64,000 nt of DNA from Desulfatiglandales bacterium (GCA_963662465.1 OY759599.1:5472001-5536000), one strand, 5' to 3'; positions 31,267 to 57,266 are shown, numbered from the stretch's first letter. Numbers and translations: made by a program. Notes: generated by a model from the letters alone, not told the origin.

Positions 31267-31270
31267 AAAA

Positions 31271-37587: not shown

Positions 37588-37699
37588 CGGCTGGGCTGCC
37601 GCCGTAAAAGGAGACCCAAGGGCAAATGCGGTAAACCCCAGCAGACAGATGACGATCACTTTTTTGGATGTTTTTGAGGAAAACGGCAGGTATGGGCAT
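37588..37699 (-). pseudogene. Signal-peptide-only remnant of TpsB (copy A)
   Basis: Aligns with 54210-54320 and ~49106-49216; carries a +1 indel. Confidence 0.85.
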
Positions 37700-37920: not shown

Positions 37921-40236
37921 ATGCACTTTTCCATCCGTTCAGCAGGATTTTGTTTCGCGGTTATAACCTGCCTCATCCTTACATTTTTTTTGCCGAACGT
38001 CCTTGCACAAGAGGTAATGACGGCACAGGCGTTCTTAAAACAGGGGCGATTGCTTCTCGATCGCGGTGCATTTGAGAAAGCCGTTTCCCGGCTTGAAGCG
38101 GCCGCCCAACAGTTCGCTGATACCGGCAAACAGAAGGAACAGGCCGAAGCCCTAGAGGGCGAGGCTGAAGCATATCAGGCGCTGGGGCGCTACCGGAAAG
38201 CCCTTGACAGCCTCAATATGGCCCTTTCCCTTGTTGAACGTCTGAACGAACCAAAATTAACAGCCCTGATCCTGGGAAGGATGGGGAATAGCGCCTTTTT
38301 TCTGGGGCATACGGATAAGGCCTGGGAACAGCTGCATCAGGGGATGGGGATCGCCCGGGAACTGAAGAACCCGGAGACAATGGCCGTTCTCACGACTTGC
38401 ATGGCAAAGCTCCACGAAATGCAGGGCCATTATGGGCAGGCGGTTTTGCGCTACGAAGAAAGCCTACAAAGCGCCGAAAGCCTGGGTGACCCCCGCCTTT
38501 CGGCAGGCATCATGGCAGATGCCGCATCCGCCTGTATCCTGAATGGGGACCTGAAAAAGGCTCAAAAATTGCTCTCCCAGTCATTTGAAGGGTACTTAAA
38601 ACTCCCCGCTTCCCACCAAAAAAGCTATGATCTGATTCTGATCGGTCGAAGCTATGACAAACTCTCATCCCTTTTGCCGGGGCAAAAAGCCCCTCTCAGG
38701 AAAGAAGCATACCGTGCCCTTCAGGAAGCGGCAGTGACGGCGGAATCCATCGGCGACCGGCGGGCCCTCTCCTATGCCTATGGATACACGGGTGGGTTAT
38801 ACGAGTCGGAAGGCCGCTATGCCGAGGCCCTGGAATGGACCCGAAGAGCCATCTTTGCGGCCCAGGAGATCGACGCCCGGGAATGCCTTTATCTGTGGGA
38901 ATGGCAGACCGGTCGTCTGTTTACGGCAATGGGGAAGATCCCTGAAGCCATCGCCGCCTACAAAACCGCGGTGCAGAGCTTTCAGGCCATACGCGGCGCC
39001 GCATCGGGTACGTGCAAAAATTGCACCCGGCAGGATTTTCAAGCCCGTGGAGGAGCCATCTTTTTTGAGCTGGCTGACCTGTTGCTCACTTATTCCGGTT
39101 CCCTGACGGACAAGGCGGAAATTGAGCCCTACCTTCGAGACGCCAGGGACACCATCGAGATGCTCAAGGTGGTGGAGCTGGAGGACTATTTCGCCGATCC
39201 CTGTGTCACCGGTTCCCAGACCGCCAAGACCCGCCTGGAAGATATCGCGAAAGATGCACTGGTGGTCTATACCATCACCTTCCCGGACCGGCTGGATCTG
39301 TTATTGAGCAGTCAGCACGGCATCGAACGGATCACAGTGTCGGTGGATGCGCAGACCATCAGGCGGGAAACAAACGCCCTCAGGCAAACCCTGGCCAAGC
39401 GGACAACCTGGCAATATCTCCCCCATGCCCAACGGATTTACGACTGGATCATCCGGCCCCTGGAACCCCAGATTGAGAAGTATCATGTCAAAACCCTGAT
39501 TTTTGTGCCTGACGGTCCCCTTCGAACCATCCCCATGGCAGCCCTCCATGACGGCCACGACTTCATCGTTCAAAGGATGGCCGTAGTCACCACCCCCGGA
39601 CTGAATTTAACGGATCCCCGGTCCATCCACCTGAAGGAAAAAAAGATCCTTCTGGCGGGGCTCAGCAAAAGCGCTCAGGGGTTTTCGCCCTTAACGAATG
39701 TGAAACAGGAAATCGACGGGATCGGCAAAATTTATGACGGTCGACGTCTTGAAAACGAGACCTTTCTGACGGCCAATGTGAAAGCGGCCCTGAAAGCCAA
39801 CCCCTACCCCATCGTGCATATCGCCACCCATGGTCAGTTTGCGGGGGAAGGATCGGAAAGCTTTCTTTTAACCTGGGATGACAAGATCCGGATGGATCAA
39901 CTGGACGGGTTCATGAAGCTGAGCCGGTTTCGAAAAGACCCGGTGGAACTGTTAACCTTAAGCGCCTGCCAGACGGCTGCCGGTGATGAACGTGCCGCTC
40001 TCGGTCTGGCCGGAATTGCCGTCAGAGCCGGCGCCAGGAGCGCTCTGGCCACCCTCTGGAACGTGAGCGATCAGGCAGCCTCCCTTCTGATTGTGGAATT
40101 CTACCGTAAACTGAACGACCCCGCGGTTTCCAAGGCCGATGCGCTTCAGGCGGCACAAATCATGCTTCTGAAATCGGGACAGTACCGCCATCCGTTTTAT
40201 TGGTCGCCGTATCTGTTGATTGGGAACTGGCTGTAG
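37921..40236 (+). CDS. Exported TPR-CHAT (caspase HetF-associated) protease
   Basis: N-terminal signal peptide (..VLA|QE), TPR helices, FVPDGPL..IPMAAL, HIATHG (His), LSACQTA (Cys), ATLWNV.D, HPFYWSPYLLIGNW. Confidence 0.93.
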   Translation: MHFSIRSAGFCFAVITCLILTFFLPNVLAQEVMTAQAFLKQGRLLLDRGAFEKAVSRLEAAAQQFADTGKQKEQAEALEGEAEAYQALGRYRKALDSLNMALSLVERLNEPKLTALILGRMGNSAFFLGHTDKAWEQLHQGMGIARELKNPETMAVLTTCMAKLHEMQGHYGQAVLRYEESLQSAESLGDPRLSAGIMADAASACILNGDLKKAQKLLSQSFEGYLKLPASHQKSYDLILIGRSYDKLSSLLPGQKAPLRKEAYRALQEAAVTAESIGDRRALSYAYGYTGGLYESEGRYAEALEWTRRAIFAAQEIDARECLYLWEWQTGRLFTAMGKIPEAIAAYKTAVQSFQAIRGAASGTCKNCTRQDFQARGGAIFFELADLLLTYSGSLTDKAEIEPYLRDARDTIEMLKVVELEDYFADPCVTGSQTAKTRLEDIAKDALVVYTITFPDRLDLLLSSQHGIERITVSVDAQTIRRETNALRQTLAKRTTWQYLPHAQRIYDWIIRPLEPQIEKYHVKTLIFVPDGPLRTIPMAALHDGHDFIVQRMAVVTTPGLNLTDPRSIHLKEKKILLAGLSKSAQGFSPLTNVKQEIDGIGKIYDGRRLENETFLTANVKAALKANPYPIVHIATHGQFAGEGSESFLLTWDDKIRMDQLDGFMKLSRFRKDPVELLTLSACQTAAGDERAALGLAGIAVRAGARSALATLWNVSDQAASLLIVEFYRKLNDPAVSKADALQAAQIMLLKSGQYRHPFYWSPYLLIGNWL

Positions 40237-40452
40237 CAGGGGAGAAGCTATAATCAAGCGACAACGTAAAAGGGTTGCAGTTTGAGATGAAATAAAAAAG
40301 GACATTTAAAAGTCCTGGGTTCAAAGCCTTTCCGGTTCATGAGTGCGGCGCTGCCTTCATCAGTTTGTGACAGCACATAGAGTCCCGCTGAGAATAATGG
40401 TTGTGGATACTTCACCAAATGAGCCGGTTTTTGAGTTGGCTGGAGGTAGGTT

Positions 40453-42219
40453 ATGGGCGTTTATATTTCTTTGCAAATTCTTCCAGATCGTATAGACCCG
40501 GATGCGTGGGCCGCTTTTTATGATGAGACGGTTCAGTTTCTCAAAAACAACGACCTCAGGCTGATTGGCCCCGGGAAAGAACGGATCAAATTGCCTCAGG
40601 GTGAATTTGAAAGGACGATTTACAGCCAAACGTTCGAACAAGTGGAAAATGGGAGACACTTCTGGCATATCTGCGGTGATCTGACATTCTATGGCATGGG
40701 GGAGAGTTTCCTTTTATACCGCGATTTGAACCATTATCAGGATCGGTATCTTTTCGCCAGGGACGCGGACAAAGATCCGGTATCAACGATGGATCTCCGC
40801 TATGACATCGTGGAAAATGTCCTTCGGGAACAGCTGCATGAGACCGATAATGTCGAAGGGGACCCGCCTGCGACAGTCGGTCGTAAACAGGATAAATACG
40901 GCAGTCTCAGCGCTATGGCGAGAGTCTTCGATGAGAAAACACAGGGACACCCATTTCACTATTACATGCTGGGCGTGGGCATGCTTGCGGAAGACCGGTT
41001 TCCGAGCGCGGCATTTGTTTCCGGAGATATTGACCGGTTCCAGGCTGAAAAGGCGCGGGATAAAATCAGGACCATTTTGAAAAGGGATGTCAACCTTCCT
41101 TTGTGTACAAACCCTGACGCCCTGCTGAAACGTGTCATGTTATATTACGAAGGTATTGCGGCCGTGAAGGCCTTCGATTGTCTTTTAAGAGACGACGACC
41201 CCCTTCAGGATGCTTCCCAAATGCATCACATTGTGATCAGGCATTTGGGCCGCCAGGTTTATGAACATTGGTTTCTAGAGAGATTGAAGCGATATGACGC
41301 GCCCAATAAGCTGGGCGCCAAGGACATCATGATGGAGTGGCTTAACTCGGGTGAACCCCTGGAACCGTTGCTCAGGCTTGCGTGTATTCATAAAGAGGGT
41401 CCGCTATATGCCCCTGTAAGCACTGCCGAAAGCCTTGTAAATCTTTGGTTGACCATTGAACCGGAAAAACGGAAGGCGTGGCAGGCCTTTTCCCGGCCTC
41501 AGGGAGCAACCGACACGGTCGCAAGTCAGTTTGGCGCCGTCTTATTGGACGTTATTTTGGGAGCGAAAGGGCGAAACCTGAAAATCTATATCCCGGCGGA
41601 TGCCCTTATTCAAACCTTTGGCCGCATTTTCCCTCAAGAAGAGAGCGCCGTCTCTGAAATGGTTCTCCGCGTAACCCGAGAACTGGAAGAGACGCATGCT
41701 CAGATCGAGAAGCCCCTGGCTGAAAAGCTCAGGCAGGTTCAGGAAGAACCGGGCGTATTGGATGGCGTCCCCATTTTGCAGTTGGCTGACGCGGCATCCA
41801 TTACCGGGGAACAGCGGGACTGGCTTGTCCATTTTGCCTATGTCCTCTCGTTTCAGTTGTCAGTGATTAAAGACGGGGAGAATGAAATAGAAAACCTGTT
41901 TTTCAATGAGAGGAATTACGATGATTTGTACTCCCAGTTTGTCCTGGCCACTGACCGGTACGGTCCCCACCTGACCGATCAAGCCTGGCAATGGATCGAT
42001 GATGAACAGGACCTGGATCTGTTGACTACCCTGACCATGCTGTCTCTGATCAATAACTCGGAACAAAAATTTTACCATACAAAGAAGGCCGTCATGGAGA
42101 AGAAATGGCTTTGTGAGCTTGTCACAAAACTCCGTATGGACACAAAGGAGATGAATAAAATTAAGATACTGGCTGATGAAGCACTGATGAAAGCAAAACA
42201 AACCCGTGAAAAGGCGTAG
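40453..42219 (+). CDS. Hypothetical protein (588 aa), function unknown
   Basis: Long ORF with GGAGG RBS; no recognisable catalytic motif. Confidence 0.8.
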   Translation: MGVYISLQILPDRIDPDAWAAFYDETVQFLKNNDLRLIGPGKERIKLPQGEFERTIYSQTFEQVENGRHFWHICGDLTFYGMGESFLLYRDLNHYQDRYLFARDADKDPVSTMDLRYDIVENVLREQLHETDNVEGDPPATVGRKQDKYGSLSAMARVFDEKTQGHPFHYYMLGVGMLAEDRFPSAAFVSGDIDRFQAEKARDKIRTILKRDVNLPLCTNPDALLKRVMLYYEGIAAVKAFDCLLRDDDPLQDASQMHHIVIRHLGRQVYEHWFLERLKRYDAPNKLGAKDIMMEWLNSGEPLEPLLRLACIHKEGPLYAPVSTAESLVNLWLTIEPEKRKAWQAFSRPQGATDTVASQFGAVLLDVILGAKGRNLKIYIPADALIQTFGRIFPQEESAVSEMVLRVTRELEETHAQIEKPLAEKLRQVQEEPGVLDGVPILQLADAASITGEQRDWLVHFAYVLSFQLSVIKDGENEIENLFFNERNYDDLYSQFVLATDRYGPHLTDQAWQWIDDEQDLDLLTTLTMLSLINNSEQKFYHTKKAVMEKKWLCELVTKLRMDTKEMNKIKILADEALMKAKQTREKA

Positions 42220-42224
42220 AGATG

Positions 42225-42430
42225 CGTTAGTGTCATTAAAATATAATGTTCAAAGCAATGTCCGAATTCGGGCGTGCCGGGTGCAGGCTTTCGACGCGCC
42301 AAATAATTGGTGACGCCCACGTCAAACAGATAGAACTTTTCGGTTTTTATAAGACGTCGATTTTTTGCTTTACGCCAGGGTTGGATACTGAATCCCAACA
42401 GGGTGTTTTCCAGTAGTTGGAATATCATGA
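42225..42430 (-). pseudogene. Fragment of an AAA_14/DUF4143 ATP-binding protein
   Basis: LENTLLG..PW...RRLIK..KFYLFDVGV..FG..FEHYI. Confidence 0.75.
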
Positions 42431-42497
42431 AATTCTCTTATCTGGTATATTTTCTCACACAGAGCGTGGGAACGAGCTTTAAAAACGAATATCGAAC

Positions 42498-42658
42498 AAG
42501 AAATGTTCTGGCGGGGATTGCGGTTCGGCGTTCGGAGTACTCTGGCCACCCTGTGGAACGTGAGCGATCAGGCGGTCCGGTTCATGCTCTTGAAACCGGG
42601 GCAGTATCGCCATCCCTTTTGCTGGTCGCCTTATCTGTTGCTCAGGAACTGGTTGTGA
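42498..42658 (+). pseudogene. Patchwork remnant of a second CHAT gene
   Basis: Segments match ~39640-39661, ~40014-40077 and ~40161-40236. Confidence 0.85.
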
Positions 42659-42696
42659 CAAGTTTTCAGAAAATATGACCGTAATATATTTTGGTA

Positions 42697-43074
42697 TCAC
42701 GCGCTGTCATAGCGTTTGAAAATTTCATCCGTAAACAGGAAAGTCATATTTTCAGACTTTGCCTGTGAATAGATTAGCCGATCAAAAGGATCACGGTGAA
42801 TCAGAGGAAGTCCCAAATATCGGAAAAGGTGGTTTTCAGTGATTTGCAAAATCCTGAAGTCGTAATCCTGAGTAACAACTTTGAAAAAAGTTTTAAAATC
42901 TTTATCCATTTCCAATTTGCCGATATTCAGTTTTATACTAATTTCCCATAACGAAGCGACACTTACATTAATTTCATTCTCAGCATCCTCAATGAGTTTT
43001 TTATATTCCGGGCTTAACCCGGCATCATCTGAAACAAACCATAACAGCACATTTGTATCCAAAAGAATTCTCAT
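42697..43074 (-). CDS. VapC-family PIN toxin
   Basis: LLDTNVLLW, SVASLWEISIK...GKL, HRDPFDRLI. Confidence 0.93.
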   Translation of the reverse strand: MRILLDTNVLLWFVSDDAGLSPEYKKLIEDAENEINVSVASLWEISIKLNIGKLEMDKDFKTFFKVVTQDYDFRILQITENHLFRYLGLPLIHRDPFDRLIYSQAKSENMTFLFTDEIFKRYDSA

Positions 43075-43286
43075 TCCATATATTTCCTCATTTCTTCCAA
43101 GGGGTCATTAAAATTTTCAGACATTCTTATCTTGCCTTTCAGCAGGCCGGCTTTTCTTTTCGGCTTTAAAGTTTTTTTTGGGATAATAATCAACTGTACT
43201 TCCTTCTCAGAAACAGAACTTTCTTCAGAAAGCCGAATGGTCTTATTGTCAAGAAATATTGCATCATATATATACACATGTTCCAT
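43071..43286 (-). CDS. Antitoxin (DUF2281-like C-terminus)
   Basis: RKAGLLKGKIRMSENFNDPLEE; ATGA overlap with vapC. Confidence 0.85.
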   Translation of the reverse strand: MEHVYIYDAIFLDNKTIRLSEESSVSEKEVQLIIIPKKTLKPKRKAGLLKGKIRMSENFNDPLEEMRKYME

Positions 43287-43588
43287 TTTATATTCCCCCG
43301 CTGGCTTCTGGGTAGTCCCCGAAAGCCCTGTGACATACATTAACAAGAAGGGCGAATAACACCGTGCTTTCAGCCCTTGGGAAGAAACATCGGATCAGAT
43401 CTTCCCAAAGGGGGGTGCCGCTTAACTGCGCTTCTTTAAAATATCCCAAATTCCCACATTGTTATCAATTTATTTTTTACTTTTTCCGCACACTCAATGC
43501 GAATGTTCTCGGGTACAAAGGTTATGTTTACATTGCCATACAAAGAACCGCCGAGATTGTTGATTGACAACCAAACGAACCTTCCCGC

Positions 43589-46500
43589 TCACCTTAAAAG
43601 TTCATCCGGTCTGGGCGGCATACCCTCACTGCTGTCAACAATAAAACTGCCGGCCTGTTCGGGATCCCGGGTTTCACACCGTTCGGGGAGGAGTTCGTCC
43701 GCACTCAGAAAGGATTCCCGCAAGGGAACCATGGCATTTACGATGTCCTGCACGGGAGAGTTGACAATAATTTTTCCTTCTTTGCCGGAAACCTGGGAAC
43801 TGGCGGTTATGTCGCTGTCCGGGGAGAGAAAAACCGCATCGGCATTGATGGTGATGTCGCCGCCAAAACCCTGATCTGCGTTGGCGGTGAGGTCGCTGTT
43901 TTCAAGGGCAACGTAGGTGGCGGCATCGATGGTCACATTGCCGCCCTTTCCTTCACCAGACTTCACGCTGGTGCTGATGCCGCTGTTGTGGGTCAATTGA
44001 ATGTCTTTTCCGGTGATGTTGATGTTTCCTCCCAGCGCTTTTTTGGCATTGGTTTTTATTGTGCCATTGTCGAGGGACAACAGATTGCCTGCATGGATGT
44101 TGATAGAACCGGCATTGCCGGTACTCGAACTCTCGGCGGATATGGTGGCGCCTTCCGTTACAGTTAGGTTTTCGGTCGTTACTGCGATATTCCCGCCCTC
44201 ACCAACGCTGTCTGTGCCACTGAAAAACCCGCTTTGGTTTCCGGCGCTGTCTTTCCCCGCGATGGAAACAGAGCCTGTGGCGTTGACCTTGATATTGCCC
44301 CCTTTGCCTGTGGAACCTCCCCGTGCACTTGCCCCAACCTGCGCGCCATTCCTGAACGAAATATTGGTCCCCTCAAGTAAAATATCCCCCGCAGCACCAG
44401 TGCTAAAGGTGTCAGCGGTAAACAAGGCCCCGCCCGTCGCGTGTAGTTCATCGGCCTTGACTGTGATCGTCCCACCATGGCCCGAACCGGCTGTACTGGC
44501 CATAATTACCACATCCGTTTCCGTTGCGTACAGCTCATCCGCCGTGACGGTGATCGATCCTCCATGGCCCGGACCCATTGTACCCGTCTGAATGCTCCCA
44601 TGCTGTTCAAGATAAAGACTGGAAGCAGTGACCTTGATATTTCCCCCTTCGCCTTTGCCACTGGTATTGCTGAAAAGTCCGCTCGGAGATCTTCGTGTGC
44701 CTTTCCCTCCGATTGTAACAGACCCAGCCGCATTGACTATTATATCTCCGGCCTTGCCTGTGGTGCCCTCGTTGGCAGAAACACTAATTTGGGCACGATC
44801 AGTTATGGAAATATTTTTTGCATCTATTTTAATATAACCAGCATCACCTTTTCCGAGGGTCGTAGATTGAATCCATGCCCTGTTTCCTTTCATATTCAAC
44901 GCTTCAGTTGTGATATAGATGTTTCCGCCATCGCCCGCATCATCCGTTTCTCTGTGGGTGTTGGCAGCTATTGCCCCATCTTCTCCAATCGAAATATTTG
45001 ATGCTGTAACAAAAATATTCCCCCCATCGCCCTTCCCATAAGTACTGCAATAAAGGCCGCTTAAAAACCCGGGCCCACTGTCTTTACCTGTAATCGAAAG
45101 TGTATCGGATACGGTTACATTCATTTCGCCTGCCTTACCTTCTGAATCTTGTCGAGCTGATACATCAATCTGAGCGCCCTTGGTCAAAGAGATGTTTTCA
45201 GCATCTACAGTAATGTTTCCTCCATCACCTTTACCATACGTAAGGGACCTTAAATAACCTGTTTCAGAGGTAAGTTCCCCTGTTTTCACCGTGATGTCCC
45301 CAGCATCACCGTCACTTTTGGCCCAAGCATTTATCTCTGCATTGCGGAGAAAAACTTTTGAAGCAGTGACAGATATGTTTCCCCCATTTCCGCTGCCCTT
45401 GGTATAGCTCCATATTCCGGTAAGCGGCCCTCCATCCTCCCCTTCGATATTCACACTGTCTCTTGCATTGACAGTTATAGTGGCGCCATCGCCTTCTGCA
45501 CCATCAATTACATTGGCATGAATTCCTGCGCCATCGATCAAAAAAAGATTTTCTGCGTCTATTTGAATCTGACCCCCATTGCCACTGCCAGAAGTGTTGC
45601 ACCAAATGCCGCTGTTTTTCCCTTCAATTGCAACGTCACTTTTTGCATTGATTGTTACATTTCCACCATTACCAGTAGAAACTTCCCAGGCTGTAGCGCC
45701 AATCTGAGCGTTGTTGGCTAGCAAGATATTTTCCGCCGTCAAAAAAATATTTCCGGCATTTCCTGCGCCGTATGTATGGGTAAATATTCCGCAAGCCCCT
45801 TTAGCGCTGAATTGCCTTGTCCTTACTTGAATGTTTCCCGCATTCCCTGCGTTTTCATCCTTTCCAAAGGTCAAAGCACGAATTTGACTGCCTTGACCAA
45901 GTAACAACATTGCAGAGTCGATGAAAATATCCCCACCATCACCATCACCGCTGGTATCGTTGATGATTCCGCTCGGATTTCCTTCGCTGTCTTCCCCCAC
46001 AATGGTAACGGAACCCGTAGCATTGATTGTGATGCTGCCGCCATCGCCTGTGGAACCTTTCTGAGCGGAAGCGTTAACCTGTGCGCCATCGGTAAGAGAG
46101 ATGTTTGTGCCCGACAACTTGATATTCCCCCCATTACCGGAACCATGGGTATAGGATTGAATATTACCATCCTTGGCGTCGAATTCCCGAGCATTTACGG
46201 TAATGTTTCCTGCATTCCCAGCATCTCTATCTGAACCGTAAGTAGAAGCGCGTATTACGCCGCCTACACCCAGTGAAAATGTTGGGGCCGTTACCGTAAT
46301 ATTCCCTCCATCACCGCTGCCAAGAGTATTGCTGAAAAGCCCACTCGGATATCCTTCAGCATCGTGACCCTCAATGGAAACCGACTCGAACGTGTTAACC
46401 AGGATATCGCCACCCAGGCCTTTAGACCCTCTCATGGCCGAGGTGTTAACTTGGACCCCGCCGACCAAAGAGACGTTTGTCCCCTCCAGCAGAATATCTC

Positions 46501-47488: not shown

Positions 47489-47581
47489 GAGATCCCCCCT
47501 TTTTCCATATCGATATGCCAAAGAAACGGAACCTTGGCGCGAAAACTCAACCCTGCACCCTGAACCCTGTCCCCTTCTCCC

Positions 47582-49216
47582 TCAAAACAACTCCCCCACA
47601 ATCAAAAACTGAAACCCCTTATCCTGCAAATCTTCATCCGCATCGTCGAATTTCACAAACGGAATGGCGCCATAAGTCATCAGGCGGATTTTATCCGTGA
47701 TGTCCCACCGAAGCGCCAGTCCCAGACTGTAGATATGCCGCTGTCCAAAAGTGGGTGTGGACGTGTTCCAGGAGGCGCCGTAATCAAAAAACGGGGTCAA
47801 TTGCAATACCCGGCGCCCCATGGCGCCGTAAAGCACCGGAATGCGGCATTCCAGCGAGGAGGCCACCCCGTTATCCCGCACCAGGCGGTTTTCCCGATAC
47901 CCGCGAACGCTGTACATGCCGCCAATGGGGAATTTTTCAACGGGGAGAAGGGGGTCGGCGGAAAGCTGCGCGTTGGTTCGAAAGGCAAGCTCCATGTCCG
48001 TATCAAAGAGACGGCGGATGAACTGGATTTGGGCCTGCCAGGCGAAAAACCTGCCGTTGGGATCGGGTAGATCCACTGACGCATCAAATACGTCCACACC
48101 GATGTTGAAGGTGGATCGCAACGCAAGGACCTGGTTCTGACTGCGCAGCATGTACTCCTGAAAAAACCGCAGGGCCGTGACCGTTGCCTCGCCGCCTTTT
48201 ACCCCCGCTGAAAAAGAGTAGGGACGGCCCAGGAGGGTGGTCTTGCTGTAGCGGCGCTCCCCCGTGAGGCCCAGGGAAAACTCGGTATCAGCCTTTTTCA
48301 GAAACGGGTGGCTCAGGGTAATCCCCATGGTGTCCGTCAAACTTTCGATATCCAGGTTTTTAAAGGGGGTCTCGATAATGGTGGACTGGTTGCGCCGGTA
48401 TTGAAGGCTCAGCATGGTGTCGCGGGCCGTAATGGGGATGCTGTAGGCGGCATCCCAATCCGCCAGACCGTTGGTGGTCACACCAATATCCCCGGCCAGG
48501 ATGTCGCCGTTTCCGGTGAGATTGTCATGGATGAAGTGCATGCCCCCTCGTACACTGCCAATGGCCGGGGATACAATGTTACCCACCTCGGCACCGATGG
48601 TGTAGGGCGAATTTTCCTCCACCTGGACCTTCAGAACACTTTCGTCTTTTTCCGTGCCGGGACTCAGTTTGGCGTTAATGCGCTCGATGCGGGGGTCCTG
48701 CTGCAACACAAGCAGGGATTCCCTCAGATCAAAGATATTCAGGGGAGGACCGGCGCCCAGCTTCAGACGCTTTTCCAGGTAACTGTCGCGGAAGTATTCA
48801 TTTCCGGAAATTTCAATTTTTGAAAGGGACCCCTCGACAACCCGCAGGACGAGAACCCCGTCGGTCATCTTCTGATCCGGTATGATGACCCCTGAGTTGA
48901 CATACCCCTTGTCCACATAGTATTGCGTCAGCTTGCGCCTGAGATCCTGCAGTTCCTCGGAAGTGATTTCACGGTTTTCATAAGGGGCTATGATTTCCGA
49001 CAGTTCCCCGTCCGGAAAAACCGTGTTCCCTTCCAGCTTGAACTGCCGCACAAACACTTTCGGCATTGCGGAAAGCTGGTCTTTCTGGGGAGCGGAGAGA
49101 ATCTCCGGCTGGGCCGCGGCAGGGAAGGGGGAAACGAGGGCAAACATGGCAAAACCCAGCAAACAGGTGATGATCACTTTACGGATGTTTTTGAGGGAAG
49201 CGGCAGGCATGGGCAT
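47582..49216 (-). CDS. ShlB/FhaC/HecB-family TpsB outer-membrane transporter (intact copy B)
   Basis: POTRA GNTVF..YVDKGY.NS..VVEG; L6 motif SVRGYREN; C-terminal Phe. Confidence 0.95.
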   Translation of the reverse strand: MPMPAASLKNIRKVIITCLLGFAMFALVSPFPAAAQPEILSAPQKDQLSAMPKVFVRQFKLEGNTVFPDGELSEIIAPYENREITSEELQDLRRKLTQYYVDKGYVNSGVIIPDQKMTDGVLVLRVVEGSLSKIEISGNEYFRDSYLEKRLKLGAGPPLNIFDLRESLLVLQQDPRIERINAKLSPGTEKDESVLKVQVEENSPYTIGAEVGNIVSPAIGSVRGGMHFIHDNLTGNGDILAGDIGVTTNGLADWDAAYSIPITARDTMLSLQYRRNQSTIIETPFKNLDIESLTDTMGITLSHPFLKKADTEFSLGLTGERRYSKTTLLGRPYSFSAGVKGGEATVTALRFFQEYMLRSQNQVLALRSTFNIGVDVFDASVDLPDPNGRFFAWQAQIQFIRRLFDTDMELAFRTNAQLSADPLLPVEKFPIGGMYSVRGYRENRLVRDNGVASSLECRIPVLYGAMGRRVLQLTPFFDYGASWNTSTPTFGQRHIYSLGLALRWDITDKIRLMTYGAIPFVKFDDADEDLQDKGFQFLIVGELF

Positions 49217-49402
49217 AAAATAACCTCAACAGACGATTGGGGATGCGGGAATCTGAATTGACGCTGATCTCTTTCCTGATATCATCATTTTTTAAGCAGG
49301 AAGTAAGTTGCTTCATTTAGCATGCCGGAACTGGGAAATCAACGGGATTTAGCCCGAACAGTGATTTTTATGCCTGAAAACGGTCGGGATTCCCCGGTTT
49401 GA

Positions 49403-49497
49403 GAAGGAAAACAAGATCCTTCTGGCGGGGCTCAGCAAAAGCGCTGAGGGCGGGGGTCGAAGCGCTCTGGCCACCCTCCTGGTGGTGGAATTCTACC
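49403..49497 (+). pseudogene. Patchwork remnant of a third CHAT gene
   Basis: gaaggaaaacaagatccttctggcggggctcagcaaaagcgct matches ~39633-39675; agcgctctggccaccctc and gtggaattctacc match ~40039-40105. Confidence 0.85.
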
Positions 49498-49535
49498 TGT
49501 GCATGACTGGGTTGAACTACAAAGGAGAGTTAATT

Positions 49536-50147
49536 ATGGGGTTTTTAGCAGAACGGGATCGGTTGCGTTTCAGCTATCGGGACTATTGTGAACGGACGGA
49601 TGATCGGCGGCGGGAGCTGATCGATGGTTTAGAATATGATATGAGCCCCGCACCCTCAAGGATTCATCAAAAACTATCCGGTGAATTATTTGTCAGGATA
49701 TATAATGCTTTAAAAGATGGACAGTGTGAGGTATACGCTGCACCCTTTGATGTTCGTTTTTCCGAGGATTCCGCAGCATCGGATGAAGAAATCTTTACCG
49801 TGGTTCAACCGGATATCGTGGTAATTTGCGATGCGTCGAAGCTGGATGAGCGGGGCTGTATGGGCGCCCCCAATTTGGTGATTGAGATTTTGTCGCCTTT
49901 CACAGCGGCCAAAGATATGAAAATCAAGCGTGACCTTTATGAGAAGTACGGTGTGAGCGAATATTGGCTGGCGCATCCAACAGATAAAACCTTCATGATA
50001 TACCGCCTCAAACAAGATAAACAATATGCTAAAGCTGAAATATACGCGGGCCGGGATATGATTGAATCGACAACTGTTCCAGGCCTGAAGATAGCGTTGA
50101 CTGATCTCTTTGGCCGTCCTACGGAACCGGCGCCATCAAAACATTAA
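49536..50147 (+). CDS. Uma2 (DUF820) family protein
   Basis: ELIDG..MSPAP..HQ, VQPDIVVICD, GAP.LVIEILSP, LYEKYGV.EYW; AAGGAG RBS. Confidence 0.93.
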   Translation: MGFLAERDRLRFSYRDYCERTDDRRRELIDGLEYDMSPAPSRIHQKLSGELFVRIYNALKDGQCEVYAAPFDVRFSEDSAASDEEIFTVVQPDIVVICDASKLDERGCMGAPNLVIEILSPFTAAKDMKIKRDLYEKYGVSEYWLAHPTDKTFMIYRLKQDKQYAKAEIYAGRDMIESTTVPGLKIALTDLFGRPTEPAPSKH

Positions 50148-50662: not shown

Positions 50663-51061
50663 TCAAGAAGTGATTTCATCCAGCAGCTCGGGATGTTTGT
50701 CCAGAAGTTTAAAAAGGTTGCTGACTGATTGCAGGGGTTTGGCCTTCCCACGCTCGTATCGGGAAAATGCATTTCGCCCTCCCCCGGTGAGCAGCGCCGC
50801 TTCCTGCTGTGTCAGCTTGAGTTTTTTACGAATTCTTGCAAGTTCAGCCGCTTCCTTCGAATCAATTTCCTTGGCGACTTGTTTGATGGCCTCGGCAAAA
50901 CGAACTCCTTCACCTACATCAAATTCGACTTCCCCGCAATGAAAACAGTGCCATCCATTGACGACAGGTATAACGGCATGATGCCCTTTATAGGTGTAAG
51001 GCACATCTCGAACAGTATGCACCATCTCTTTTTGTCCACAATTCAGACAGTCGCGTTTCAT
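50663..51061 (-). CDS. mqsA: MqsA antitoxin (Zn finger + HTH)
   Basis: CLNCG..CFHCGE; LTQQEAA..GGG.NAFSRYE.G. Confidence 0.93.
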   Translation of the reverse strand: MKRDCLNCGQKEMVHTVRDVPYTYKGHHAVIPVVNGWHCFHCGEVEFDVGEGVRFAEAIKQVAKEIDSKEAAELARIRKKLKLTQQEAALLTGGGRNAFSRYERGKAKPLQSVSNLFKLLDKHPELLDEITS

Positions 51062-51062
51062 C

Positions 51063-51365
51063 TCATTTCTCCTTGAACTGGATCACTATAGACCCATCAT
51101 GGCGTAACGTGACCCTCACATAGGCTATCCCGGCAGGCGTTTCCGGGTGATAAACATCCTGCCAAATTTGGCTTGACGAATGGGTCGTCATGCTTTTGTA
51201 AAAATCGGATCGATTCATGGAACAAACTATTTCTATCGCCTGAGCAATTTCAAGCCCCATTGCCTGGGCGCCGATCAATGCTGTTGCGGTAAAAGCGTCC
51301 GCGCCACGTAAACGAACCGCGGATTGCACAGTTGAAAGATCATAATGCGGTTTTCGCTTTTCCAT
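51063..51365 (-). CDS. mqsR: MqsR mRNA interferase toxin
   Basis: MEKRKPHY.L, FYKSMTT, WQDVYH, IQFKEK. Confidence 0.95.
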   Translation of the reverse strand: MEKRKPHYDLSTVQSAVRLRGADAFTATALIGAQAMGLEIAQAIEIVCSMNRSDFYKSMTTHSSSQIWQDVYHPETPAGIAYVRVTLRHDGSIVIQFKEK

Positions 51366-51370
51366 AATGA

Positions 51371-51399
51371 ACGTTAACCTTATAGGGTAATTCCGTCAA
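51371..51399 (-). promoter_or_regulatory. mqsRA promoter with an MqsA-type operator palindrome
   Basis: TTGACG-17-TAACGT, 5 nt from the ATG; TAACCT-N3-AGGGTA at 51375-51389 resembles the E. coli MqsA box TAACCT-N3-AGGTTA. Confidence 0.75.
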
Positions 51400-51673
51400 G
51401 GAATGTTTAGTACGCTTGCGCTTCCACCTTATTGACACCTCTCATATTTCCAGTAACGTGGAATTGGTTGATTTGATAATCAGTAAGGGAGGATAGGAAA
51501 TGACGAACGATTCCACGGCAACAGAAAGCCGGATACGGAAAGATATGGGGTCGTGAAAGCCAAAAGGGGGCTTAAGGTGAATCAAATTATTTGACTTTTT
51601 TGACATCTTTCAAAAAAGCGCAAAAGTAGTTTACATTTTACCTTGAAAACACTCATTTTCACTCGGTTCTACC

Positions 51674-51724
51674 TGTGAGAGAGGCTTTCAGCATCGACCA
51701 TCGCGGCGAGACGCCGCTCCCACA
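51674..51724. repeat. REP-like inverted doublet
   Basis: TGTGaGAGaGGC-TTTCA-GCatCGA facing the reverse complement of TGTGGGAGCGGC-GTCTC-GCCGCGA. Confidence 0.6.
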
Positions 51725-51889
51725 GGGGAGTTCTCATGCTTGGAAACGAGATGCATGGGGGCAAAAGTGTAAACTGGAAAATGAAGGATGCCAAAAATTG
51801 CATCAAATCTTCGTAATGGGGGGCTGATTAACGGCGCTTCTCTGACATATCTCAAATTCCCGTATCGTTATCAATCAATTTTTTACTTT

Positions 51890-54024
51890 TCACCACAACA
51901 ACTCATCGGGCCTTGGCGGAAGACCCTCACCGCTGTCAACAATAAAGCTGCCCGCCTGTTCGGGGTCCCGGATTTCACACCGTTCAGGGAGGAGTTCGTC
52001 CGCACTTAGAAATGATTTCCACAAGGGAACCATGGCGTTTACAATGTCCTGCACGGGAGAATTGACCGAGATTTTTCCTTCCTTGCCGGAAACCTGGGAA
52101 CTGGCGGTGATGTCGCCGTCCGGGGAGAGAAAAACCGCATCGGCAATAATGGTGATATCTCCCCCATAACCCTGATCTGCGTTGGCGGTCAGGTCGCTGT
52201 TTTCGAGGGCAACGTAGGTGGAGGCGTTGATCGTCACATTACCGCCTTTTCCCTCCCCGGATTTCACGCTGGTGCTGATGCCGCTGTTGTGGGTCAGTTG
52301 AATGTCTTTTCCGGTGATGTTGATGTTTCCTCCCAGCGCGTTTGCGGCATTGGTTTTTATTGTGCCATTGTCAAGGGACAATAGATTGCCGGTATGGATG
52401 TTGATGGACCCGGCATTGCCGGTACTCGAACTTCCGGCGGAGATGGTGGCGCCATCCTTTATTGAAAGGTTTCCGGCTGTTACTGAGATATTCCCGGCTT
52501 TCCCAACACTATAAGTGTTGCTGAAGAACCCGCTATCTGACCCCGTGATGCTGATGGAACCCACGGCATTGATCGTAATATTGCCCCCCTTGCCGGTCGA
52601 ACCTTCCCGGGCGCCGGCCCCAACCTGTGCGCCATCCCTGAACGAGATATTAGTCCCTTCAAACAAAATATCACCCGCATCCCCCGCGCCATAGGTATTT
52701 GCAGCCATATCTCCTCCCGTCGCGTGCAACTCATCCGCCTTGACGCTGATCGTACTATACCACCATGGCCCGCACCGGTTGTGTTCGCCTGAATTACCCC
52801 ACCCTCTTCAAGCGAAAGGCTGGTAGCCGTGACCGTGACGCTTCCCCCATCCCCTTTTCCACGCGTGTTGCTGAAAAGACCGCTTGGGTATCCAACGTTG
52901 CTTTTTCCTCCAATTAAAACAATGCCTTTGGCACTTACCGTAATATCTCCTGCTCTGCCTTTGGCCTCTTCTATGCAAACAGAGCTAATTTGAGAGCCAT
53001 TGGTCAAAGACAGGTTTGTTGAATCAAACATGATATTGCCGGCATCGCCCGCGCCATTAGTCCATGAGTTCACGCGAGCATTGTGATCCAGCGACACACC
53101 ATCCTTCACCCTTACATCAATCCCCCCACGACTATCCTTATCCCCCATGGTGTTGGCATACACCTTTCCCCCATCCACATAAAAATTCCCCCCACGCACA
53201 TAAACAACTCCGCCTCCTTCACCACTCACATCCACATCCCCAATTTCGTACCAGACCTTGACATGATCCACCTCCGAGCGCTTAATATTGATATTCCCGA
53301 GCCGTGCAAATGAATCCACCCCCGCTCCCGAAGATCCCATGGTTACTTCCCCTGCGGAAGCCACGCTCACTAGATCGATCTCGCCGCCTGGGGCATGAAG
53401 CGTTGCATCATTCAGCGTGATATCCCCTCCCACAAGAGAAAGGGTCTCCCCCTCGGGAACTTTCAAGTAGCTCCCCTGTACCGTAATCGGCGCCGTAGTA
53501 TCGTCCAGAAAACCAAAGGCAGAGGGGGGATCAACCGTCAAAACGCTCTGCTCGGGATGGATGGCGTCAAACCGTCCTGTTTCCCCCAGAAGTAGGTAAT
53601 CGGCGGTACTCGCATGAAACGAACCGTTCACATCCAGGGTGGCGTTGGGGCCGAACATCATGCCGTATGGGTTTATGAGAAACAGGTTGGCCCCCGGAAT
53701 GGTGCAGCCGAGCCTCCCGTCAATGAGGGAAGACGTGCCCCCGGTGACGCGCCCGATGACATTCTGTATCCCGCCGGGGCCGGTAAAGGTCCCGCTTTCG
53801 CCGGTATTGATATTGAAGGTCTCGAAGCTGTGAAAGAGGTTGGCCCCCGCCTGGGATCCCATTTTGTCGGTGATCACATAGTTGGGCCCGGACACGGCCC
53901 CTTTCTGACCGACGGTCCCATCCAGCACCACCTCGGCATGGGCAAAGGCAACCAGGCATACCAGTAAAGAAGAAGCCGTTCCGGTCCACCCAATGACTTT
54001 TTGAAAACGGTTAAACACTTTCAT
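51890..54024 (-). pseudogene. TpsA copy C, shorter, frameshifted by a 5-bp insertion at ~52754-52758
   Basis: N- and C-termini nearly identical to 43589-47488; GHGG|atagt|TISVKADEL versus GHGGTITVKADEL in copy B. Confidence 0.9.
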
Positions 54025-54320
54025 GAGATCCCCCTTTTTCCATATCGATATGCCAAAGGAACGGACGTGATTTCCCGGTTTTCATAAGGCGCTAAAATCT
54101 CCGATAATTCCGCGTCCGGAAAAACCGTGTTCCCCTCCAGATTGACCTGCCGCACAATCACTTTCGGCATTGCGGAAAGCCGGTCTTTCTGGGGAGCGGG
54201 GAGAATCTCCGGCTGGGCTGCCGCCGCGAAGGGGGACGCAAGGGCAAGCGCGGTAAAACCCAGCAGACACGTGACGATCATTTTTTGGATGTTATTGAGG
54301 AAAACGGTGGGTATGGGCAT
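54021..54320 (-). pseudogene. TpsB copy C with a ~1.43-kb deletion
   Basis: Matches the TpsB N-terminus up to ENREIT, then jumps at CGGA (54062-54065) into the TpsA leader. Confidence 0.9.
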
Positions 54321-54523
54321 AAAAAAACCTCAACAGATGATTGGCATGCGGGAATCTGAATTGACGCTGATTCCTTTTCCTGATATCATCATTCAGTCAT
54401 TGAAAATCAGGTTTTTTTATCTACCATGCCGGGTTTTCGAAATCAACGAGATTTCAGCAAACAGCTATTTTTATCTATAACACGGGCAAAATTCCCCAGT
54501 TTGATGAAATTGAACTTCATAAT

Positions 54524-56422
54524 ATGAGATGGATTTCCAGAGAAATGCAACGTCCCCTGTCCATGGGGATACTGATCGGCATCATGGTGAGCCTGTGTCT
54601 CATCCGGCTGCACCATACGGGGAAACTTCAGTTTCTGGAATTGACGGTCTATGACTACTATGTGGTGCAGCGTTCCGGACTGGAACAAACAGCGTCTCCT
54701 CCCATTGCCTTGATCTCCATTTCAGAGGACGATATTCAACATTTTGGGTGGCCCATGAACGACGCCACGATGGCGCGCATGCTCGAAATACTCCTTAAGC
54801 AAAAGCCCCGGGTCATCGGCCTCGATATTTATCGGGATATCCCCGTGCCGCCGGGGAGTACGGCCCTTGAAGCCATTTTCAAAGCGCATCAAAACATTGT
54901 CGCCATAAAAAAAATGGGCGACAAAAATGCCCCCGGTATTTCCGCGCCCTTCATGGCAGGCATACAAAACCCGGTGGGGTTCTGCGATCTTCTTCTGGAC
55001 CCCGCTGGCACAGTACGCAGAGCCCTCCTCTTCATGGAAGACGGCGACTTGCACGTCTCCTTTGCCCTGTTCCTGGCCCTTATCTACCTGGAACCGGAAG
55101 GGATTAAACCGCTTCCTGATTCACAACCCCTGCGGTTGGGCAAAGCCACCTTTGTGCCCCTTGAATCCAGTGACGGCGGGTATGTAGGGATGGATGCCGG
55201 GGGCTACCAGTTTCTTTTGGATTATCGGGATGGCATCTCTCCCTTTCGCACATTCTCTCTGGCGGATGTGCTGGCGGAAAAATTCGATCCTTCCGCCATT
55301 AAAGACAGGGTGGTTATCATCGGTTCTTCGGCGGAAAGCACACCGGACTTCTTTTCCACCCCCTTCAGCCGGTTTGTCAAATCCCGGTTAAAAGTCCCGG
55401 GCGTGGCCATCCACGCGGGCGCCGTGAGCCAGTTGATCCGTTTTGCACTGGGAAAATCCGAGCCTCTCGGTTTCTGGAGCGAAACCTGTGAATGGGGGTG
55501 GATCGTGTTGTGGGGGCTGATGGGATCCCTTTTGTGTCTCAGAATTCGCTCCCTCCCCCTTTTTCTGGTTTGCGCTCTGTTTGCCGTCAGCCTTCTTTTT
55601 CTGTTGACCTTCCTGCTTTTCCAGCAAAATATCTGGGCGCCGGTTACCGCTCCCGCCGCCGCTTTTCTGGCCGCCGCGGGGCTCATGGGCTTCTACATGT
55701 TTCACCTGGAAAAAGCGCAACGAGGCCTTTTAATGGGGCTCTTCTCGACGTATGTGTCCGGCGATATTGCAGAGACCATCTGGGAGCAACGAGACCAGTT
55801 TATGGATGGCGGCAGACCCCGTTCTCAGACATTGACCGCCACGGTGCTCTTTACCGACATTCGGGATTTTACTCAGATGGCTGAAAATATGGACGCTCAA
55901 GAACTCATAGACTGGCTCAACGAATACCTGGCGGCAATGGTAAACCAGGTGTCAAGCAACAAAGGCATCGTAGACAAATATGTGGGTGATGCCATCATGG
56001 CCGTTTTCGGAGTTCCGGTGCCGCGGACAAACGATGGGGAGTTTGCGGAAGATGCCGTCAATGCCGTACGTTCCGCGCTGAACATGGGGCTGGAAATGGA
56101 CCGACTCAACAGAATGTGGTCGGATCAGGGCCGACCCACCGGCAAAATGCGGGTCGGCATCCATACCGGCCCGTTGACGGTGGGGAGTGTGGGGAGCGCC
56201 CAGCGGCTCGAATATACGGTGATCGGCGACACGGTAAACATTGCTTCGAGGCTGGAAAGCTTCGATAAGTCCCTGGATTCGGAAAGCTCCTGCCGTATCC
56301 TGATCAGCAATGCCACCCGAAACTATCTGGGGAAACGGTTTTGCGTCGAAAGGTTGACTCAGGCGCAATTAAAGGGTAAGCGTCAGTGGGTTGAAATTTA
56401 CAAGGTTCTCGATGAAAAATGA
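54524..56422 (+). CDS. CHASE2-domain class III adenylate cyclase (start may be 54545)
   Basis: N-terminal TM, CHASE2 (GWP..D, VIGLDIYRDIP, PGVAIHA), 3 TM, LFTDIRDFT, DKYVGDAIMA, EYTVIGDTVNIASRLES. Confidence 0.94.
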   Translation: MRWISREMQRPLSMGILIGIMVSLCLIRLHHTGKLQFLELTVYDYYVVQRSGLEQTASPPIALISISEDDIQHFGWPMNDATMARMLEILLKQKPRVIGLDIYRDIPVPPGSTALEAIFKAHQNIVAIKKMGDKNAPGISAPFMAGIQNPVGFCDLLLDPAGTVRRALLFMEDGDLHVSFALFLALIYLEPEGIKPLPDSQPLRLGKATFVPLESSDGGYVGMDAGGYQFLLDYRDGISPFRTFSLADVLAEKFDPSAIKDRVVIIGSSAESTPDFFSTPFSRFVKSRLKVPGVAIHAGAVSQLIRFALGKSEPLGFWSETCEWGWIVLWGLMGSLLCLRIRSLPLFLVCALFAVSLLFLLTFLLFQQNIWAPVTAPAAAFLAAAGLMGFYMFHLEKAQRGLLMGLFSTYVSGDIAETIWEQRDQFMDGGRPRSQTLTATVLFTDIRDFTQMAENMDAQELIDWLNEYLAAMVNQVSSNKGIVDKYVGDAIMAVFGVPVPRTNDGEFAEDAVNAVRSALNMGLEMDRLNRMWSDQGRPTGKMRVGIHTGPLTVGSVGSAQRLEYTVIGDTVNIASRLESFDKSLDSESSCRILISNATRNYLGKRFCVERLTQAQLKGKRQWVEIYKVLDEK

Positions 56423-56459
56423 AACCGGGAAGCGCTATTTCTTTTAAAAGGAGGAAATC

Positions 56460-57266
56460 ATGAAATTTTTAGGGACCTGTTATTCCCCGGCGTCGGTTGC
56501 GGCAATGATCATTTTGTTTCTCTTTTTTTCCTGCTACGGGGATTCAGTTCGCGGTGCGGATTCGGAAACAGTTGGGACAAAGCTCTCTGGAATGAGCGCC
56601 AAAGACACGCCCGCGGAAAAGACCCCGGAATTCCGGCTGATGGCATACGCTCCCCCCAAACGAGGCAAACCCGGTGGTCGCATCGGAGGGGGGACGCGGG
56701 GGGAAGGAAAAAACTTTCCCGTTGTCAGCGTACTGGCGCCGGATCATACCGCTCACACCACAAAAGCTCAGCCCGATCTCTACTGCTATGTATCCAACCC
56801 CACCAACAAATCCATTGAATTTACCCTCAATCTGGAACAGGAGGGAAAGACGATTGCCCATGAGGGCATAAAAGGGGGACCGCAAGAAGGCATTTGGCGC
56901 CTCAGCCTGTCTGATTTGGGGGTTGGCCTGTCGCCGGATACCCAGTACACCTGGTTTGTCACCATGGTTCTCGATCCGAATCAACCGTCCACGGACGTGT
57001 TTTCAGGCGGCGCCATCATGCGGGTAAACCCTTCCGGCAAACTCGAGAAAAGGCTGGCAGGGGCGAAGGAAATGGACATCCCCGCCATCTATGCGGCGGA
57101 AGGGATCTGGTATGAGGCCCTGGCGTCTCTTTCACGGTTGATCGACAAATACCCTGAAAACAAGACTCTGCGCCTGCAACGTGCAAATCTTCTTGAACAG
57201 GTGCGCCTTGAAAAGGAGGCGGCCTTTGACAGAAAAGCTGCGGGAGGTGCTGCATCACCCCAGTGA
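56460..57266 (+). CDS. DUF928 domain exported protein
   Basis: Signal peptide; P.GR.GGGTRG, L.P...T...P, Y.W, YA..GIWYEAL..L, LLEQV.L. Confidence 0.9.
   Translation: MKFLGTCYSPASVAAMIILFLFFSCYGDSVRGADSETVGTKLSGMSAKDTPAEKTPEFRLMAYAPPKRGKPGGRIGGGTRGEGKNFPVVSVLAPDHTAHTTKAQPDLYCYVSNPTNKSIEFTLNLEQEGKTIAHEGIKGGPQEGIWRLSLSDLGVGLSPDTQYTWFVTMVLDPNQPSTDVFSGGAIMRVNPSGKLEKRLAGAKEMDIPAIYAAEGIWYEALASLSRLIDKYPENKTLRLQRANLLEQVRLEKEAAFDRKAAGGAASPQ

Follow-up and report, generated by a model that had tools for sequence, protein, structure and literature searches.

Among described systems, MtxA and its CHASE2 adenylate cyclase in magnetotactic bacteria are the closest in structure and genomic context to the locus reported here, the NsrA-CyaK/CyaD-Clr pathway of Sinorhizobium meliloti is the closest in function, and the LapD/LapG-CdrAB system of Pseudomonas aeruginosa is, by analogy, the closest in logic. 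The locus lies in a 64,000-nucleotide stretch of a Desulfatiglandales bacterium genome (GCA_963662465.1 OY759599.1:5472001-5536000; "the window", with positions counted from its first letter), in which positions 37,921 to 57,266 hold intact genes for a two-partner-secretion (TPS) exoprotein (TpsA), its transporter (TpsB), a TPR-CHAT protease, a receptor cyclase with a CHASE2 domain, and a DUF928 protein. A sequence-only reading had proposed that these five form an envelope signalling system in which adhesin export or surface contact triggers cleavage by the CHAT protease, read out by CHASE2 as cyclic adenosine monophosphate (cAMP); our analysis confirms a conserved and widespread module and partly supports that interpretation, the mechanism itself being a proposal.

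MtxA is an exported protein of unknown function whose gene is followed by that for a CHASE2 adenylate cyclase (PMC4439547). It resembles DUF928 in being exported, in combining immunoglobulin (Ig)-like and TPR-like domains, and in having its gene beside that of a CHASE2 cyclase; it differs in showing no detectable sequence similarity and in carrying an extra N-terminal region, and the available part of the report mentions no CHAT or TPS partner (PMC4439547). In S. meliloti, the CHASE2 cyclases CyaK, CyaD1, and CyaD2 make cAMP on a signal of protein nature, a response that depends on NsrA, a beta-barrel protein of the outer membrane, and the Crp-type regulator Clr reads the cAMP (PMC7529298, PMC13001267). 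The pathway is like the module in its CHASE2 cyclases, outer-membrane protein, protein signal, and cAMP reader. Its gene neighborhoods are different: in the S. meliloti record CP090106.1 the CHASE2 cyclase genes stand beside FecR-domain genes, not DUF928, with convergent FecR-domain neighbors for both cyclases (2205271 beside 2207099, and 525921 beside 527495), and the sole match of ShlB type is part of an ordinary hemagglutinin pair at a distance from the cyclases. NsrA was not identified in this one record by searching for ShlB and FecR. CHASE2 cyclases may pair with different small periplasmic partners by lineage, namely DUF928, MtxA, and FecR-domain proteins.

In the P. aeruginosa LapD-LapG-CdrA/CdrB system, a TpsA-type surface protein held by its TpsB partner is acted on at its end by a cysteine protease of the periplasm, and a nucleotide second messenger is coupled to this step through an inner-membrane protein with a periplasmic domain (PMC4694147). 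No component is homologous: LapG is transglutaminase-like rather than a CHAT protease, LapD is a GGDEF-EAL protein rather than a CHASE2 cyclase, and the messenger is cyclic diguanosine monophosphate rather than cAMP. Signaling here likely runs outside-in, because the receptor has an enzyme output and no cytoplasmic sensor. A caspase-fold protease linked to CHASE2 in a conserved neighborhood is also a feature of the EACC2-caspase-CHASE2 systems (Kaur, Iyer, Burroughs, Aravind 2021; PMC8195603), in which a cytoplasmic protease and CHASE2 form one polypeptide encoded with an extracytoplasmic function (ECF) sigma factor and DUF1822; in the window CHAT is separate and predicted to be exported, its companions are TpsAB, DUF928, and the cyclase, and Pfam finds neither sigma factor nor DUF1822 at the locus. 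CHASE2 is called a small-molecule receptor domain in that work, after its 2003 description (PMC8195603).

A five-gene set conserved across phyla

The sequence-only reading had named five intact genes and four protein motifs (HIATHG, LSACQTA, DKY, and EYTVIG). Open reading frames (ORFs), Pfam matches for each, and translations bear it out on both counts, with the genes placed as follows.

37921-40236, plus strand: TPR-CHAT protease gene (Pfam)
43589-47521, minus strand: TpsA1 (Pfam TPS)
47582-49216, minus strand: TpsB (Pfam POTRA_2 and ShlB)
54524-56422, plus strand: CHASE2 cyclase (Pfam)
56460-57266, plus strand: DUF928 gene (Pfam)

Within the 8.16-Mb genome, this 19-kb stretch holds the sole DUF928 match, one of four CHASE2 matches, one of three CHAT matches, and two of the four matches to the TPS domain. 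The assembly is matched by contigs from two public runs across the CHAT gene, a 588-aa gene downstream of it, TpsA1, and the cyclase-DUF928 pair. Elsewhere in the genome, about 190 kb downstream of the window (C1:5715410-5724046), an open frame of ~2878 codons carries a CHAT domain at its end (212 bits).

We surveyed 80 loci from other genomes, chosen as the best tblastn matches to the window's DUF928 (of 102 confirmed) and hence not a random sample; none is cyanobacterial by title, and many lie on short contigs. Locus ORFs were labeled with profiles iterated from the window's own proteins, and Pfam agreed for all 21 proteins sampled. A well-flanked subset comprises the 33 loci that have 8 kb or more to either side. 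Each family was present near DUF928 in the following numbers of loci:

CHASE2 cyclase: 61 of 80 loci; 28 of 33 well-flanked
TpsB: 56 of 80 loci; 30 of 33 well-flanked
CHAT: 50 of 80 loci; 29 of 33 well-flanked
TpsA: 44 of 80 loci; 29 of 33 well-flanked
All five families: 36 of 80 loci; 25 of 33 well-flanked

The loci come from Proteobacteria, Nitrospirota, Verrucomicrobiota, lineages of delta-proteobacteria, Rokubacteria, Methylomirabilota, Acidobacteriota, Myxococcota, and further groups. The five families are therefore a conserved co-located unit across many phyla, far beyond the cyanobacteria, and the co-occurrence on which the sequence-only reading depended holds in the well-flanked, non-cyanobacterial loci. 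The eight incomplete loci of that subset retain the cyclase only (two), CHAT with TpsA and TpsB (two), or, once each, the cyclase with TpsAB, CHAT with TpsA, CHAT with TpsB, and TpsB only. Two arrangements are common, TpsA>TpsB>CHAT>cyclase>DUF928, and CHAT>cyclase>DUF928 with convergent TpsB<TpsA; of the 66 loci that have 2 kb or more of upstream sequence, 44 have a CHASE2 cyclase gene immediately upstream of DUF928 and on its strand. We found no description of the five-gene set in the literature searched, where subscription journals are thinly covered, and the module is apparently undescribed in print.

Proteins with cyclic nucleotide monophosphate (cNMP)-binding domains recur beside the module in other genomes. 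One similarity cluster spans 28 loci; five of nine sampled members have a cNMP-binding domain, and the other four are GAF/histidine-kinase proteins. The fusion partners of the cNMP-binding domain are an MMPL transporter, a glutaminase, a symporter of SLC13 type, a Ser/Thr kinase, and a Crp DNA-binding domain. Pfam scans of the window detect no cNMP-binding gene.

Within the window's own phylum the distribution is patchy: DUF928 occurs in 4 of 301 genomes, this one included, and in none of four genomes of the same family or five further genomes of the same order. All three other carriers have the cyclase beside DUF928; one has all five genes, another, on a contig of 12.5 kb, is short of TpsB alone, and the third, whose contig measures 4.9 kb, shows just the pair. 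A metagenome scan with DUF928 returned a single 2.6-kb contig, on which a DUF928 gene encoding an 81% identical protein has recD nearby, as in the window. The insertion is thus not unique to this strain, and not a very recent arrival. On that contig (421-1233) a gene of the Alph_Pro_TM family lies between DUF928 and recD; it is absent from the window, where the gap is 30 nt.

Components of the module and their proposed circuit

The DUF928 protein (268 aa; PF06051 at 122 bits, against a cut-off of 26) begins with a signal-peptide-like segment. Its most conserved stretch follows the predicted signal peptide (residues 63-81) and reads Y-x-P-P-x-R-G-x-P-G-G-R-[IV]-G-G-G-[TS]-R-G, with the strict Gly/Arg pattern kept in 63 of 82 DUF928 ORFs. 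The structural model (predicted local distance difference test, pLDDT, 84.5) has an Ig-like sandwich followed by a five-helix TPR-like domain. Its sole match in the PDB with a Z of at least 8 is MtxA (4Z29; VIA-align Z 11.2, root-mean-square deviation 4.2 A, 158 of 169 residues), the next match having a Z of 6.6; Foldseek agrees (E 3.8e-5, probability 1.00), so that the model is of an MtxA-like fold. The matched part of 4Z29 is the C-terminal two domains of MtxA. A DUF928 profile finds no chain among PDB sequences at E of 1 or below. If the model is right, two sequence-unrelated but structurally alike exported proteins, DUF928 and MtxA, have the same genomic partner. The family is large, with 7019 cluster representatives matching the profile at E of 1e-3 or below. 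In some family members of 440-500 aa the profile matches twice or three times along the protein, so that these are tandem domain duplications. We also considered the Gly/Arg motif as a marker of CHAT-linked versus CHASE2-linked function, and rejected it, since it is kept in both types of locus.

The cyclase (632 aa) matches CHASE2 (PF05226, 196 bits, residues 24-335) and Guanylate_cyc (98 bits), and its hydrophobic segments predict one transmembrane segment, the CHASE2 domain, three transmembrane segments, and the cyclase domain, placing CHASE2 outside the cytoplasm between transmembrane segments. Residues D445, D489, K485, T565, N572, and R576 are present; in class III adenylate cyclases the two Asp bind metal, the Lys and the Asp/Thr specify the substrate, and the Asn and Arg serve the transition state. 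The closest solved chains are CyaB (3R5G, E 6e-30) and CyaC (1WC0). These residues are those expected of an ATP-using class III enzyme, and the description of the protein as a CHASE2 cyclase with three transmembrane segments and ATP-type residues stands on family matches, hydrophobic segments, and catalytic columns alike. The CHASE2 domain model (residues 29-323) is confident (pLDDT 87.4, predicted template modeling score 0.90); no solved fold in the PDB clearly matches it, the best VIA-align Z being 4.8, and Foldseek returns nothing at E of 1e-3 or below.

The CHAT protein (771 aa), of the caspase-like clan CD, matches PF12770 (194 bits) together with TPR families. His633, His637, and Cys683, in a His-x3-His and Cys arrangement, are invariant in all 44 module homologues; we presume that one of the two histidines is catalytic. 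Its N terminus in the window is signal-peptide-like, and a strong hydrophobic N-terminal segment is found, at a strict threshold, in 31 of the 40 CHAT ORFs with a complete 5' end; of eight misses set out individually, five are still signal-peptide-like and three are over-extended ORFs of high G+C. CHAT is thus consistently predicted to be exported, and the expectation of an exported protease with an intact dyad is supported on both points. Clan CD proteases often cut after basic residues.

TpsA1 has a TPS domain (PF05860, 137 bits) and a signal-peptide-like N terminus (...LVAFAHA/EVVLDG); counted from a TTG it has 1310 codons, and its likely start is an ATG at 47488 behind an AAGGGGG site. It is a predicted beta-helical two-partner-secretion exoprotein. 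The TpsB gene lies 60 nt upstream on the same strand and encodes a 544-aa protein with a signal-peptide-like N terminus and the POTRA and Omp85-type barrel domains of an outer-membrane transporter (PF08479, 82 bits; PF03865, 96 bits; PF01103, 54 bits). Across the loci, TpsA proteins end in a tail motif (LLRExCxAR, 6-9 residues, SSFVVxGRGGLPxxPGGxLPSP) that Pfam does not detect. Among the 45 TpsA ORFs whose 3' end is complete, 42 have this motif, and 23 of the 45 have a Cys within the last five residues. The tail of TpsA1 is recognizable but degenerate (ERCETR...GSFIVDSSEGMPPRP; tail hidden Markov model E 3.8e-6). The sequence-only reading had singled out the TpsA tail as a possible substrate of CHAT: the conserved C-terminal motif gives that idea a concrete candidate, which the window's own TpsA1 carries in its degenerate form. 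Pfam detects no toxin domain in TpsA.

From these parts we propose a circuit that runs from the state of the filament to CHAT cleavage, to DUF928 and CHASE2, and to cAMP; it is a plausible proposal throughout. TpsB would export the TpsA filament, whose conserved C-terminal tail would be the last part to leave the periplasm. The Sec-exported TPR-CHAT protein would act there on the TpsA tail, on the Gly/Arg motif of DUF928, or on both; the two contain Gly-Arg-Gly-Gly-like cores, and processing of either or both by CHAT is what we infer from their sequences. DUF928, as an MtxA-like Ig and TPR protein, would be the periplasmic partner of the CHASE2 domain, the receptor would make cAMP according to the state that the filament or DUF928 is in, and the cNMP-binding proteins encoded next door in other genomes would read it.

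The pairing of DUF928 with CHASE2 is proposed because the genes are adjacent in 44 of 66 loci and because MtxA offers a parallel. Predictions of a complex between CHASE2 (29-323) and DUF928 (58-264), made from a 26-row alignment per partner, gave ipSAE scores of 0.37, 0.37, and 0.40, with 0.01 for the best of three controls; runs agreed in at least 60% of contacts, and partner pLDDT was at least 75. The tool classed the pair as weakly supported and returned no interface. When the tool was calibrated, 116 of 157 solved complexes passed its mark, as did 2 of 215 mismatched pairs; passing scores of 0.60 or below came from only 18 of the 157 solved complexes and from both of the mismatched pairs that passed. 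We count this prediction as evidence neither way; the suggested pairing keeps its genomic and structural grounds.

Several observations weigh against the circuit. The mtxA deletion mutant was without phenotype (PMC4439547). DUF928 also occurs without parts of the set (among the 33 well-flanked loci, two have the cyclase only and five are without the cyclase), and its Gly/Arg motif is kept in all seven loci that have CHASE2 but no CHAT/TPS and in seven of ten that have CHAT/TPS but no CHASE2. At the column of Lys485, only 8 of the 26 relatives have Lys and 10 have Asp, which leaves the nucleotide made by the family as a whole uncertain; residue 492 is Lys in 13 of the 26 and Met in 10, which hints that in part of the family the substrate-binding Lys may have moved or the nucleotide specificity may differ. 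The TpsA1 tail is without the Arg-Gly-Gly core, having SSEGMPP in place of GRGGLP, so that if this core is the cleavage site the TpsA1 copy could not be cut there. Finally, with its rearrangements and its many mobile and toxin-antitoxin genes, the locus may hold a module that is decaying in this genome.

The main alternative to filament sensing takes the same parts in the direction of protease control, much as in the Lap system: CHAT would release or mature TpsA, DUF928 and CHASE2 would hold or free the protease, and the cyclase would be a side output or would sense an unrelated cue. LapG, a periplasmic cysteine protease, cuts the TpsA-type CdrA off the cell, and LapD sequesters LapG (PMC4694147), while the conserved TpsA tail, the exported CHAT, and the loci without CHASE2 (5 of 33) would all fit a protease-adhesin core. 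The receptor, however, carries only a cyclase and no cytoplasmic input domain, so that inside-out control would have nothing to read; Pfam finds no LapG- or LapD-type family among 17 locus proteins scanned; and the neighboring cNMP-binding proteins point to cAMP as a real output. We consider protease control of this kind unlikely.

Promoter copies and the history of the island

The sequence-only reading had tied the genes to copies of one divergent promoter module, and this proved sound. Repeat search, alignment, and whole-genome blastn find three copies of a ~330-nt module, all in the window, and blastn finds no fourth in the 8.16-Mb genome. Each runs from the first TpsB codons on the minus strand through an intergenic region up to the start codon of the plus-strand gene, and all three share one promoter-like site (TTGACG, 16-17 nt, TATC(A/G)T), in which a TG precedes the second hexamer. 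The copies precede CHAT, the TpsB-TpsA1 pair, and the cyclase-DUF928 pair. Copy 3 (54160-54523) is 88% identical to 37588-37901 over 315 nt (E 9e-107) and 80% identical to 49056-49402 over 349 nt (E 1e-79).

37579-37920: promoter module copy 1, promoter-like site 37740-37768 (plus strand), with a ~150-nt leader to the CHAT start codon
49056-49477, including a CHAT remnant: promoter module copy 2, the most diverged, promoter-like site 49258-49285
54160-54523: promoter module copy 3, promoter-like site 54361-54389, with a leader to the cyclase start codon

The leaders of copies 1 and 3 (37769-37920 and 54390-54523; ~150 nt) are ~90% identical right up to the CHAT and cyclase start codons, and the leader matches no family in Rfam.

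What flanks each copy differs. Copy 1 has on its minus side a TpsB remnant of signal-peptide codons (~30 codons, 37579-37699); copy 2 has the full TpsB-TpsA1 pair on one side and ~75 nt of a CHAT gene on the plus side; copy 3 has 89 TpsB codons and a shortened TpsA2 on one side and the cyclase and DUF928 on the other. Further features of the window, from the ORF listing and Pfam scans, are:

28016-33730: tig-clpP-clpX-lon
33795-34012: tRNA-Val and tRNA-Asp
34874-35014, minus strand: short TpsA fragment at the island's left edge (tblastn, TpsA1 residues 1154-1200, 53% identity; repeat family D7)
35409-36824: ISAzo13-type element with 28-nt inverted repeats
36998-37567, minus strand: PIN gene (Pfam)
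40453-42219, plus strand: 588-aa gene without a family
42507-42655, plus strand: CHAT remnant, the C-terminal end of a second, more diverged CHAT gene (tblastn, CHAT residues 700-771, 49%; blastn)
42697-43340, minus strand: VapC (42697-43074) and a small antitoxin-like ORF
49403-49477: CHAT gene remnant after promoter copy 2 (blastn)
49482-50147, plus strand: Uma2
50663-51365, minus strand: MqsA/MqsR
51890-54024, minus strand: shortened TpsA2 (tblastn, Pfam TPS)
54054-54320, minus strand: TpsB remnant, first 89 codons only (tblastn, 75% identity)
57297-63240, minus strand: recD and recB

From tRNA-Asp to recD (~23 kb, 34000-57300), G+C swings between 0.40 and 0.56, and the stretch looks like a mosaic island dense in mobile and toxin-antitoxin genes, with three toxin-antitoxin pairs (PIN, VapC, MqsRA), Uma2, the ISAzo13 insertion sequence, and the 588-aa gene as cargo. 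The sequence-only reading had missed this setting, together with TpsA2, the TpsB and CHAT remnants, the toxin-antitoxin genes, Uma2, the insertion sequence, and the 588-aa gene. Outside the island, the window has another Uma2 gene (16417-17031) and, at 382-2037 on the minus strand, a gene for a 551-aa protein with an IPTL-CTERM sorting motif and no further family. The 588-aa gene was considered as a member of the module and rejected, as it has no Pfam family and no relative in the 80 DUF928 loci; the Atlas clusters that it matched are all unnamed. It is probably island cargo, inserted into the former second CHAT gene.

TpsA2 (PF05860, 140 bits) is without about residues 450-1017 of TpsA1; tblastn finds TpsA1 residues 7-449 in one frame (78%) and residues 1018-1309 in a different one (83%). 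The assembly has a putative frame break near 52726-52753, where TpsA2 has 5 extra nt relative to TpsA1. One public-run contig is missing 5 nt at 52753, a difference that by itself would give TpsA2 an open frame of 728 codons, and a second carries 2 additional nt at 53253 that would disrupt the frame once more; the differing contigs may derive from paralogues. A fourth, degraded copy of TpsA and TpsB lies 295 kb off without a promoter module (C1:5173842-5177935), its TpsB internally deleted and its TpsA split over two frames, ~90% identical to parts of TpsA1 and TpsB.

The simplest reading of these sequences is that a divergent ancestral unit, TpsA<TpsB<P>CHAT>cyclase>DUF928 (P, the promoter module), was duplicated and then lost parts reciprocally, and that toxin-antitoxin genes, the insertion sequence, and the foreign gene were inserted into the duplicated unit. 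The patchy spread in the phylum and the island context fit horizontal acquisition, and we read the locus as a rearranged member of the module, acquired by an organism whose sampled relatives are without DUF928.

A harsher account of the same history is that the island, once acquired, was broken up through duplication, deletion, and insertion, with open frames that persist by chance or for the time being and no longer function. The TpsB and CHAT remnants, the deletion in TpsA2, and the degraded copy 295 kb away would be expected from such decay, as would the interspersed insertion sequence, three toxin-antitoxin pairs, and foreign 588-aa gene, the degenerate TpsA1 tail, and the want of DUF928 in the genomes of the same family and order. 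Yet the island keeps all five genes, each in exactly one full-length copy, with all examined catalytic residues and signal peptides intact; the three promoter copies stand before CHAT, TpsB-TpsA1, and cyclase-DUF928; and the metagenomic relative has its DUF928 gene in the same place near recD. Loss of function strikes us as decidedly improbable.

The island setting also bears on a reading as conflict or kin recognition, in which TpsA would probe neighbors or invaders, CHAT would be the effector that responds to attack, and cAMP would trigger a defensive state. Caspase-like domains are joined to CHASE2 in predicted conflict systems of multicellular bacteria (PMC8195603), and toxin-antitoxin genes and a patchy presence (4 of 301 genomes in the phylum) would suit such a role. 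Against it, a Pfam scan of the locus finds none of the EACC2-caspase-CHASE2 fusion, ECF sigma factor, or DUF1822; the candidate cNMP readers (transporters, a glutaminase, a kinase, and Crp) are not of the kind typical of death effectors; and TpsA has no toxin domain detectable by Pfam. We find conflict the hardest of these readings to credit, and very improbable. We judge it an even call that the locus is instead a copy of a conserved envelope module, gained by horizontal transfer and scrambled afterward, that works by the circuit proposed above.

Implications for CHASE2 signaling

The canonical operon occurs widely, in Proteobacteria, Nitrospirota, Verrucomicrobiota, and lineages of Desulfobacterota type among others, and the window is a natural rearrangement of it that keeps one intact copy of each gene and three promoter copies before three units. 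DUF928 is hardly treated in the literature searched, despite its at least 7019 cluster representatives, and the literature examined offers no established CHASE2 ligand; the module offers a testable lead on what CHASE2 detects. Its fixed gene set names candidate inputs to a CHASE2 cyclase, namely an exported protease, a tailed surface filament, and an MtxA-like partner, and a protein-based input has precedent, since the S. meliloti CHASE2 cyclases depend on an outer-membrane protein and a proteinaceous signal.

In its most general form, the proposal is that CHASE2 receptors read periplasmic proteolysis rather than small molecules: the filament tail would report contact, tension, or loss, CHAT would cut the tail or DUF928, and DUF928 with CHASE2 would pass the event on as cAMP. 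We put this forward tentatively and regard it as doubtful. If true, it would make the module a bacterial analogue of protease-activated receptors, spanning both membranes and present in at least 10 phyla.

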